A stretch of DNA of 37,727 bases from a virus (Duplodnaviria > Heunggongvirae > Uroviricota > Caudoviricetes), in the IMG/VR virus record IMGVR_UViG_2909288124_000007, positions 1-37,727 of that record. One strand, written 5' to 3'. A program made the translations under genes and the position numbers. This document shows positions 35,169 to 37,383 of this stretch, piece after piece (the first letter of the stretch is position 1; each line of letters begins with the position of its first letter). The notes below the pieces were generated by a model. That model worked only from the letters and a program-made list of their open reading frames with translations. It ran no database searches and was not told the DNA's origin.

Positions 35169-35969
35169 ATGCATCGTATAGACACGAAAACCGCGCAGAA
35201 GGATAAGTTCGGCGCGGGTAAGAACGGTTTTACCCGTGGTAACCCCCAGACCGGCACACCTGCCACCGATCTGGATGATGACTACTTTGACATGTTGCAG
35301 GAAGAACTTTGTAGCGTGGTGGAGGCCTCCGGTGCCAGCCTGGAGAAAGGGCGGCATGACCAGCTGCTTACCGCACTTCGTGCGCTGCTGTTAAGCCGCA
35401 AGAATCCGTTTGGCGATATCAAATCGGATGGCACTGTGCAAACGGCTCTCGAAAACCTTGGTTTGGGAGAAGGCTCTGCATTACCTGTTGGGGTTCCTGT
35501 TCCGTGGCCTTCAGCCACTCCGCCAACAGGCTGGCTGAAATGCAACGGAGCAGCTTTTTCTGCTGAAGAATACCCGGAGCTGGCAAAGGCTTACCCGACA
35601 AATAAATTGCCTGATTTACGTGGTGAGTTTATTCGTGGCTGGGATGACGGACGTGGTATGGATACGGGGAGGGCAATATTATCCGCTCAGGGCGATGCCA
35701 TACGTAATATCTATGGTGAGTTCAAGACTGTAAACACCGAAAATTATTCAATATGGGAATCAGTAGGCTCGTTTAAGGGGGCAGTAGTGCCTTTGAACCC
35801 CTCAACGAACAATAGTTATTTCTCCTTAATCAGAAGTATGGTGACAGAAAGAACAGATGGCGCTGTTTACCCAAAAGTGATTGGCCTTGATGCTTCAAGA
35901 ATTGTTCCAACTGCAAACGAAAACCGTCCTCGTAACATTGCCTTTAATTATATCGTGAGGGCTGCCTGA
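35169..35969 (+). CDS. tail fibre protein (constant N-terminus plus variable C-terminus in current orientation)
   Basis: Conserved N-terminal tail-fibre segment (…[22 protein letters not shown]…); contains the left inversion crossover site at 35448-35473 after about 94 codons. Confidence 0.8.
35448..35473. repeat. left crossover site of the invertible segment (hix/gix-like)
   Basis: CTCGAAAACCTTGGTTTGGGAGAAGG resembles hix (TTCTTGAAAACCAAGGTTTTTGATAA) and is the inverted repeat of 37329-37355. Confidence 0.75.
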
Positions 35970-36571
35970 TGAATAAAGCCGTATTAAATAACGAACTCAT
36001 TGCCATAAAAGCGGGAGTCATTACCATTTATAATTATGATGGTGAAACGCGGGAATATATTTCCACATCAACTGAATGTCTTGCGGTTGGCGTCGGTATC
36101 CCGGCATGTTCTTGTTTAGATGCACCAGTTACACATAAAGCTGGTTATGCAATCTGCCGTTCTGCAGATTTTAACTCATGGGAATATGTGCCAGACCATC
36201 GCGGTGAAATCATCTATAGCACCGAAACAGGAGAATCGAAAGAAATCACAGCTCCGGGTGATTATCCTGAAAATACAACCACTATCGCCCCGTTAACGCC
36301 ATACGATAAATGGGATGGTGAGAAATGGGTGACGGATACCGAGGCACAGCATAGCGCCGCAGTAGAAGCGGCAGAAGCACAGCGCCAGTCGCTGATTGAT
36401 GCTGCAATGGCTTCCATCAGTCTGATTCAACTGAAATTACAGGCCGGGCGGAAGCTGACGCAGCCAGAAAACACCCGACTTAACGCTGTGCTGGATTATA
36501 TTGACGCGGTGACGGCAACAGATACCAGCACAGCGCCGGACGTCATCTGGCCTGAACTGCCGGAGGCGTAG
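35969..36571 (+). CDS. tail fibre assembly protein (Tfa/U-like)
   Basis: 200-aa ORF immediately after the tail fibre gene; conserved C-terminal segment shared with the inverted Tfa' gene (…VDTSGAPDIEWP… / …TDTSTAPDVIWPELP…). Confidence 0.75.
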   Translation: MNKAVLNNELIAIKAGVITIYNYDGETREYISTSTECLAVGVGIPACSCLDAPVTHKAGYAICRSADFNSWEYVPDHRGEIIYSTETGESKEITAPGDYPENTTTIAPLTPYDKWDGEKWVTDTEAQHSAAVEAAEAQRQSLIDAAMASISLIQLKLQAGRKLTQPENTRLNAVLDYIDAVTATDTSTAPDVIWPELPEA

Positions 36572-36983
36572 GCCATTCAATATCTGGCGCACCGGAAGTA
36601 TCGACCAGCTCCAGTGCGTCCAGATAATCCAGCCACAAATTATATTGCGCCAGTTCCTCACCTTTCAGGCGACCAATCGCCGCTTTACCAGGCCATTGCT
36701 TACTGTTTATGTATTCGTTGACCTGATTAATCAATTGCTGCTTTTCCAGTTCGGCTGCGGCAATTTGTTCCTCATGAGTTGGCGGTGGAATATCAATCCA
36801 TGCAGGCATTCCGTCGATGACACCTCTGTATTTTCCTTCTGGTGCTTCCTTCATAAATTCGGCGGCAACAGTGTCGTCAATTTCGATTCCATCACCGGGC
36901 CATTCGCCGGATTCCTGATAAGCGATTTTAAGCTCCACAGGGAAAAACGCATTTTTATCGGCACTGAAAATATATTTCTGCAT
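36543..36983 (-). CDS. alternative tail fibre assembly protein (Tfa') inside the invertible segment
   Basis: 146-aa minus-strand ORF, convergent with Tfa and sharing its C-terminal motif. Confidence 0.7.
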   Translation of the reverse strand: MQKYIFSADKNAFFPVELKIAYQESGEWPGDGIEIDDTVAAEFMKEAPEGKYRGVIDGMPAWIDIPPPTHEEQIAAAELEKQQLINQVNEYINSKQWPGKAAIGRLKGEELAQYNLWLDYLDALELVDTSGAPDIEWPTPPAVQAR

Positions 36984-36984
36984 T

Positions 36985-37383
36985 TCACCGTCCTATCGAA
37001 ATATAACTGAATCTGTATTGCTGTGAGATATCACTGGTTGCCACACGCCACGCTGAATTACTGATATGTTCAAAATTTACAGACAAAACTTGCGGGGCAG
37101 GATTCGACGGGTCTGACTGAACGGCATCAGACATAACACTGACTGAAACCATCGGCTGATTAGGGAATGGTATAGGGAAGTGTCCACTGATAAAGCGGGT
37201 CGTGTTTCCTGAAAAAGTGCCAAACTGAACAATATATCCACCTGGTAGCCTGAACCATCCCGAACCAGAAGCGAATGCTCCCATATCCGGTATCTGATTA
37301 TCTCCTGTGCCCACATCCCTTTTCGCCGCTTCTCCCAAACCAACGTTTATGAAAATGCAGAAATAACGAGCAAATGGCATCAT
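36985..37383 (-). CDS. alternative tail fibre C-terminal variable segment (Sv'), promoterless in current orientation
   Basis: Minus-strand ORF whose 5' portion (…NVGLGEAAKR…) mirrors the crossover region of the expressed fibre (…[11 protein letters not shown]…); would fuse to the constant fibre N-terminus after inversion. Confidence 0.65.
   Translation of the reverse strand: MMPFARYFCIFINVGLGEAAKRDVGTGDNQIPDMGAFASGSGWFRLPGGYIVQFGTFSGNTTRFISGHFPIPFPNQPMVSVSVMSDAVQSDPSNPAPQVLSVNFEHISNSAWRVATSDISQQYRFSYISIGR
37329..37355. repeat. right crossover site of the invertible segment
   Basis: CTTCTCCCAAACCAACGTTTATGAAAA; first 15 nt are the exact reverse complement of the left site. Confidence 0.75.

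Follow-up and report, generated by a model that had tools for sequence, protein, structure and literature searches.

The P segment of e14, a cryptic prophage of Escherichia coli K-12, inverted by Pin, and the G segment of phage Mu, inverted by Gin, have been understood since the 1980s. We compare with these systems a tail-fibre locus in the virus record IMGVR_UViG_2909288124_000007 (IMG/VR; Caudoviricetes), the full 37,727 nucleotides of which are referred to here as the window. Inversion of the e14 P segment has been seen by whole-genome sequencing and polymerase chain reaction (PCR) in derivatives of E. coli K-12 MG1655 (PMC4272514), and quantitative PCR has shown that the segment is inverted by PinE and, in trans, by PinQ of the prophage Qin (PMC12529663). 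The same study found a K-12 ΔpinE mutant to be locked, and reported the e14 segment in inverted form in 33% of 562 deposited genomes (PMC12529663).

The locus in the window is an e14-type Pin/pix P segment, and hence belongs to a system that is already known. The only addition made here to an earlier annotation from the letters of the DNA (hereafter the sequence-only reading) is that the invertase gene is truncated and that the lineage sharing this truncation has a uniform polarity. The element is very probably a Din-family (Hin/Gin/Cin/Pin) switch of the e14 type in the fibre gene of an e14/SfV-like prophage, with a dead cis invertase and most likely locked with the collar-type fibre expressed.

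Recombination sites of the invertible segment

The segment is bounded by two inverted 26-bp sites, pixL and pixR, in which paired 12-bp half-sites surround a 2-bp core; the cores, TT and AA, are mutual reverse complements, as in Din-family sites generally.

35446-35471: left recombination site pixL, 26 bp, CTCTCGAAAACC-TT-GGTTTGGGAGAA, crossover dinucleotide at 35458-35459
37330-37355: right recombination site pixR, 26 bp, TTCTCCCAAACC-AA-CGTTTATGAAAA, crossover dinucleotide at 37342-37343
35458-37343: invertible segment, 1886 bp including both core dinucleotides, delimited by breakpoints against strains H3 and 357900, by in-silico inversion and by the natural inverted form

Both sites are identical at 26 of 26 positions to those of e14 in K-12 (locus L005, positions 4779-4804 for pixL and 6606-6631 for pixR), and the pix core, AAACC-NN-(G/C)GTTT, agrees with Mu gix. 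When the whole 37.7-kb window was scanned with a degenerate half-site pattern (TTCTCCCAAACCNNSGTTT, up to three mismatches allowed), three matches were found against 0.21 expected, all of them at pixL or pixR, and none of 100 shuffled controls reached three. The core repeat TTGGTTTGGGAGAAGG, given for e14 by Kirigo et al. (PMC12529663), is intact at the left site, and the right copy deviates from it at the outermost base. pixL sits within the fibre codons reading ...ENLGLGE....

The sequence-only reading had described hix/gix-like inverted repeats, with 15 nt of perfect complementarity, on either side of about 1.9 kb. These repeats are real, and as 26-bp sites they take the positions listed above. 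A repeat finder placed the arms at 35453-35472 and 37329-37348 (20 nt, 95% complementary), within which complementarity is perfect over 15 nt between TTGGTTTGGGAGAAG (35458-35472) and CTTCTCCCAAACCAA (37329-37343). Several further inverted repeats, 16-31 nt long, lie in the same 4.7 kb, and length alone is therefore not decisive. We accept pixL and pixR because they are identical to known sites and because the breakpoints found by comparison with relatives fall there.

Two alternative ends of one fibre gene

The two sites enclose one fibre-tip and chaperone pair on each strand, with the constant part of the fibre lying to the left of the segment and a short leader to its right.

34581-35165, plus strand: baseplate gene (YmfQ / Mu gp48 family), 5' of the fibre; Pfam Phage_Mu_Gp48, E 9.4e-27; ymfQ in relatives
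35169-35969, plus strand: tail-fibre gene in the current assembly, 266 amino acids (aa); Pfam Collar, E 1.6e-15
35169-35457, plus strand: constant part of the fibre, Sc, 96 aa; 100% aa identity to the K-12 StfP N-terminus
35458-35969, plus strand: variable part of the fibre, Sv, collar-type; 100% aa identity to the GF66.2 and H3 cassettes
35969-36571, plus strand: chaperone of the current fibre, TfaE-like, 200 aa; Pfam Caudo_TAP, E 5e-32; tfaE in RefSeq relatives
36543-36983, minus strand: alternative chaperone Tfa', 146 aa; Pfam Caudo_TAP, E 4.6e-34
36985-37343, minus strand: alternative fibre C-terminus Sv' (gp53-like), part inside the segment; Pfam Gp53-like_C, E 3e-9
37344-37383, minus strand: leader outside the segment, 13 aa, ATG at 37383 (MMPFARYFCIFIN...), AGGA before the ATG

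Comparison of the current fibre with PDB entries returned a short tail fibre (9cuy, E 6e-26) and the tip of T4 gp37 (2xgf, E 2.4e-17). Its TfaE-like chaperone shares 90.5% aa identity with K-12 TfaE, and Tfa' is conserved at 97-99% aa identity in four relative loci (L001-L004). The two chaperone genes are convergent, their 3' ends sharing 29 nt (36543-36571). In the present orientation Sv' is promoterless relative to the fibre operon, and strain 357900 expresses a 215-aa fibre whose variable part is identical to it at 114 of 114 aa. The leader and this cassette together form a 132-aa open reading frame (ORF; 36985-37383, minus strand), such that the leader reads into whichever cassette adjoins pixR; the equivalent ORF is annotated as a coding sequence (CDS) by the Prokaryotic Genome Annotation Pipeline (PGAP) in relatives. 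A promoter and terminator scan of 34500-37727 returned none above shuffled expectation.

This arrangement, a fibre C-terminus with its Tfa on the plus strand and Sv' with Tfa' on the minus strand, is the one that the sequence-only reading had drawn from the letters; the ORF list and the Pfam matches (Collar, Caudo_TAP twice, Gp53-like_C) agree with it, and the peptides that it quoted on either side, ...ENLGLGEG... and ...NVGLGEAA..., are found in the ORF translations. For annotation, the consequence is that the fibre gene has two alternative 3' ends, and that the gp53-like and assembly ORFs on the minus strand, far from being independent genes, make up the switch's silent half.

The chaperone genes show further likenesses to each other and to those of K-12. 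The tfaP and tfaE genes of K-12 overlap likewise at their 3' ends, and conserved C-terminal motifs of the two chaperones in the window (LDYIDA and LDYLDA) give rise to an internal inverted repeat at 36490-36507 and 36616-36633. A 31-nt inverted repeat at 36035-36065 and 36965-36995 was weighed as a further recombination site but discarded, as it is without a pix-like core and its arms fall within the two tfa genes or at their start. This repeat (81% complementary) connects TfaE-like codons ~23-33 with the stretch in which Sv' ends and Tfa' starts, and it may be a trace of common tfa ancestry, TfaE having an N-terminal extension.

Inversion in silico and in natural relatives

When the segment (35458-37343) was inverted in silico, both sites were unaltered and the reading frame was kept. 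The 96-aa constant N-terminus is then fused to the minus-strand cassette, yielding a 215-aa fibre that ends in ISIGR, and the 146-aa Tfa' begins 1 nt past the stop codon of the new fibre. The chaperone of each tip thus moves along with it.

The inverted form also occurs in nature. An inverted query of 2511 nt, beginning at the end of ymfQ and reaching into the invertase gene, produced a single contiguous match at 100% coverage in four complete E. coli genomes (H3, 98.7%; 357900, 97.6%; HH107, 96.5%; 20AR0354, 96.0%), and in its present orientation the window is colinear with E. coli GF66.2 (97.7%). In pairwise BLAST against H3 and 357900, colinearity switches exactly at 35453-35472 and 37329-37348. 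Parts of the segment are 98.5-100% identical to H3 in reversed sense and 97.7-99.8% identical to GF66.2 in the same sense, and the same flanks carry the segment in both orientations (plus in GF66.2, minus in H3 and 357900). Genomes were also matched through the 200 nt at the start of the invertase gene (at least 80% coverage each). Of those lacking the truncation junction described below, the gp53-like cassette adjoins the invertase in 102 and the collar-type cassette in 174. Both orientations are thus found across genomes, as they are for Din-family segments. The expectation of the sequence-only reading that inversion would exchange the fibre C-terminus is upheld by the in-frame in-silico product, the natural inverted copies, the position of the breakpoints at the repeats and the 26/26 identity of the sites to those of K-12 e14.

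These observations fit a mechanism in which a serine invertase would pair the two 26-bp pix sites, cut at the central TT/AA and rotate the 1.9-kb segment. The 96-aa N-terminus would thereby be joined either to the collar-type tip (266 aa, with the TfaE-like chaperone), as at present, or to the gp53-like tip (215 aa, with the 146-aa Tfa'). With each tip co-inverting alongside its own chaperone, the receptor specificity of the virion would be expected to change. One tip is of the Collar family and the other of the unrelated Gp53-like_C family. The two fibre forms may confer different host range.

Phage records filed under Salmonella, Klebsiella and Escherichia also contain the same segment. Homology in phage records often begins near the left site (query positions 348-359), which is the familiar modular exchange of fibre tips.

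Truncation of the adjacent invertase gene

Where a Din-family switch has a complete serine invertase beside it, the window has a remnant only.

37410-37609, plus strand: remnant of a Pin-family serine invertase, codons 1-66, with R65W
37609-37612: deletion junction, which takes the 3' two-thirds of the invertase gene; junction sequence GGACTGGCTGGGATTATATAAAACCGCAG

The ORF concerned (37374-37727, plus strand) encodes a product that, from Met13 (37410), starts MLIGYVRVSTNDQ; the remnant runs into 39 unrelated codons, and the ORF stops at the last base of the window, 37727. Of the 145 positions of the Pfam Resolvase profile, it matches only 2-76. By tblastn, PinE matched through residues 1-67 only (37410-37610, 95.5% identity), the sequence being unrelated from residue 68, and this search located no other resolvase-like sequence in the window. 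Ser9 is kept, residue 65 has changed from R to W, and the residues from 68 on are lost. In serine recombinases, a truncation at this point takes away a catalytic arginine that is conserved in the DRLGR motif, together with the oligomerisation helix and the helix-turn-helix DNA-binding domain. R65W is a change at a second catalytic arginine.

Compared with pinE in the dusA prophage of strain APEC E123 (locus L013), which is directly followed by a DinI-like gene, 348 bp are missing, window positions 37609 and 37612 corresponding to L013 positions 3972 and 4321. Compared with GF66.2, the missing stretch is 1323 bp and includes a DUF4145 gene. The junction (window 37520-37727) was recovered at 100% identity in seven complete E. 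coli genomes and at 95% in two more, always in a prophage adjoining prfC and always beside a DinI-like gene, and PGAP labels the recombinase there as 'missing C-terminus'. Because the same junction recurs in complete E. coli genomes, the truncation is no assembly artefact.

With its cis invertase truncated, this copy is therefore unable to flip itself. The switch is probably frozen in cis, such that it can flip only via a Pin-family invertase supplied in trans. The deletion of ~0.35 kb, leaving 66 invertase codons, would do away with self-flipping, while the sites, both cassettes and probably the enhancer are intact and the segment would still be a substrate for the Pin-family invertase of another prophage in the cell.

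A candidate for this enhancer lies inside the remnant.

37431-37494: candidate Fis-dependent recombinational enhancer, inside the invertase remnant

A search under a loose rule identified two G-N13-C 15-mers, at 37431 and 37480, which are 49 bp apart with TAATG between them, the first starting ~90 bp from the centre of pixR. In Hin this spacing is 48 bp. The Hin enhancer, 65 bp long, sits within the 5' part of the gene at a distance of ~100 bp from hixL; it has a Fis site at either end and AT-rich TAATG in its spacer (PMC3798978). Over its first 111 nt, the invertase gene of the window differs from K-12 pinE at three positions. By this likeness, the remnant may well retain the enhancer.

Similar invertase truncations, with a 90% identical junction, were seen in the dusA prophages of strains CE0021a and KOr024 (loci L016 and L017), where most of the segment and both sites have been lost. 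These look like a later decay stage of the same switch, and the two loci were left out of the census of polarity that follows.

Uniform polarity of the truncated lineage

The remnant and right flank of the window are 100% identical to the prfC-adjoining lineage. All nine genomes that share the junction and carry an intact segment show the polarity of the window, in that a collar-type fibre and a Tfa of ~200 aa point forward. Eight of them have a gp53-like tip and a Tfa' of ~140 aa in reverse, and these silent cassettes are annotated as intact CDSs; in the ninth, EC05 (locus L012), that half is degraded. The pix sites are exact in six of the nine, and the enhancer region is kept. In contrast, orientations are mixed where the 5' end of the invertase gene occurs without this junction. 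Uniform polarity is the expected look of a switch frozen since the deletion, although, given shared ancestry, it is not statistical proof.

Several points weigh against a locked switch or limit what the census can say for it. The nine same-polarity genomes share ancestry (all are at prfC) and are not independent trials. Furthermore, Sv is only 36-58% identical in aa among cassettes, so the census rests on cassette type. Lastly, two strains with the truncated allele have another pin locus besides: in APEC E123 it is an intact pinE, and in PEC422 a pinE known from annotation only. Flipping in trans is therefore possible. APEC E123 has two related prophages, one at prfC with the truncated invertase (L007) and one at dusA with the intact pinE (L013); they encode the same Tfa' protein (WP_000376436.1), and their segments are oppositely oriented. 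Within the truncated lineage, a chimeric query that joined the collar cassette to the truncated junction gave no one-piece match to a flipped copy, in a search whose sensitivity is limited by the divergence of the cassettes.

Alternative explanations

The alternative that survives best is that the switch is still active, being flipped in trans by the Pin-family invertases of co-resident prophages, in which case the truncation would be irrelevant and the population mixed. We hold this as a tentative and rather unlikely reading. The sites, cassettes and enhancer region are all intact, PinQ of Qin does invert the e14 segment in trans (PMC12529663), and most E. coli genomes have several related loci (median of two places per genome). 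The truncated allele and a second pin locus occur together in APEC E123, where the latter is intact, and in PEC422, and the silent cassettes are still annotated as intact in eight genomes of the truncated lineage. However, polarity is uniform in the window and in nine of nine genomes of that lineage, and neither of the orientation-specific searches gave a one-piece match through the junction (with cassette divergence limiting their sensitivity). Moreover, the K-12 ΔpinE mutant is locked despite its chromosomal pinQ and pinR (PMC12529663), and the window itself has no further invertase.

It is doubtful that the 'dead' switch is still under selection, either as a segment run by the invertases of other prophages (an inter-prophage dependency) or with its leader-fused cassette acting as a receptor-blocking defence protein. 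The truncated invertase amounts to a small natural experiment in whether a switch of this kind can outlast its own recombinase.

A further proposal, which we consider quite improbable, is that the relevant product is that of the minus-strand leader and cassette ORF, a receptor-blocking anti-phage protein like StfE2 of e14, with inversion, or its loss, setting which cassette it includes. The ORF (36985-37383) does have its own ATG outside the segment, preceded by AGGA, and the analogous chimeric protein of K-12 has been reported to block T2 adsorption (PMC12529663). Against this, no promoter signal rose above chance in the scanned region, the gp53-like cassette on the pixR side does not detectably match the tip of K-12 StfP, and a role in the virion is simpler for a prophage that looks structurally complete.

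That the repeats are alike by chance, or only because the fibre genes are paralogous, and that no site-specific recombination is involved, is scarcely credible: several inverted repeats of 16-31 nt do occur in the same 4.7 kb, but only these two places match the half-site pattern, they are identical at 26 of 26 positions to proven sites, and natural inverted copies have exact breakpoints there.

Prophage context

The window looks like a complete e14/SfV-like temperate phage.

386-1609: integrase

Genes for terminase, portal, protease, capsid, sheath, tube, tape measure and baseplate hub form an apparently complete morphogenesis module, with Mu-type baseplate J and gp48 present according to Pfam. 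As the structural genes appear complete, the fibre plausibly has a role in the virion, in contrast to that of the K-12 remnant. Over positions 1-15285, which hold the integrase and the early genes, identity to Stx2c-converting phages is 97%; the late region resembles e14 and Mu. These sequence matches make the prophage a mosaic, lambdoid in its early half and e14/Mu-like, with contractile-tail genes, in its late half. In a database comparison, this combination of parts was found in no complete E. coli genome or phage record.

Two genes at the integrase end of the prophage may be accessory or defence cargo. One, adjoining the integrase, is a 417-aa ORF with no Pfam match (1782-3035, plus strand), and the other encodes a 331-aa protein with a PAPS-reductase domain (3856-4851, minus strand).

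Comparison with known systems

The switch belongs to a system that has long been understood, and nothing in the window opens a new question about it. The closest relative is the e14 P segment, in which, as here, both 26-bp sites are identical to those we describe. Gene order also corresponds, ymfQ, stfP, tfaP, tfaE, stfE and pinE in e14 being matched by ymfQ, fibre, tfa, tfa', Sv' and pin in the window; the fibre gene lies 3' of ymfQ, the tfa genes are convergent and pin is beside the right site. The leader ORF (36985-37383) is the positional analogue of K-12 stfE/StfE2. The two elements differ in that e14 is a 15-kb remnant whereas the prophage here is apparently complete, and in that the polarity of the window is opposite to that of MG1655. 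A gp53-like tip replaces the K-12 StfP tip, with no detectable match between them, and Tfa' is only 55.6% identical to K-12 TfaP. Lastly, the counterpart of K-12 pinE is truncated here after codon 66.

Likeness to the Mu G segment extends from the gp47/gp48 baseplate genes and the constant fibre N-terminus to the two convergent tip-chaperone pairs, and in Mu too the tip and chaperone move together (S with U, S' with U'). Mu gix has the same 26-bp geometry and the core AAACC-NN-GGTTT. In Mu as in the window, 67 bp separate the centre of the site from the start codon of the invertase, and Mu Gin agrees with the remnant at 50 of 66 positions. Mu differs in its larger segment (~3 kb), its longer constant part (~170 aa), its unrelated variable parts, the outer half-sites of gix and an intact Gin. 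The Hin/hix flagellar switch of Salmonella shares the recombinase family, the site geometry and probably the position of the enhancer; however, Hin flips a promoter, whereas the segment described here carries coding cassettes.

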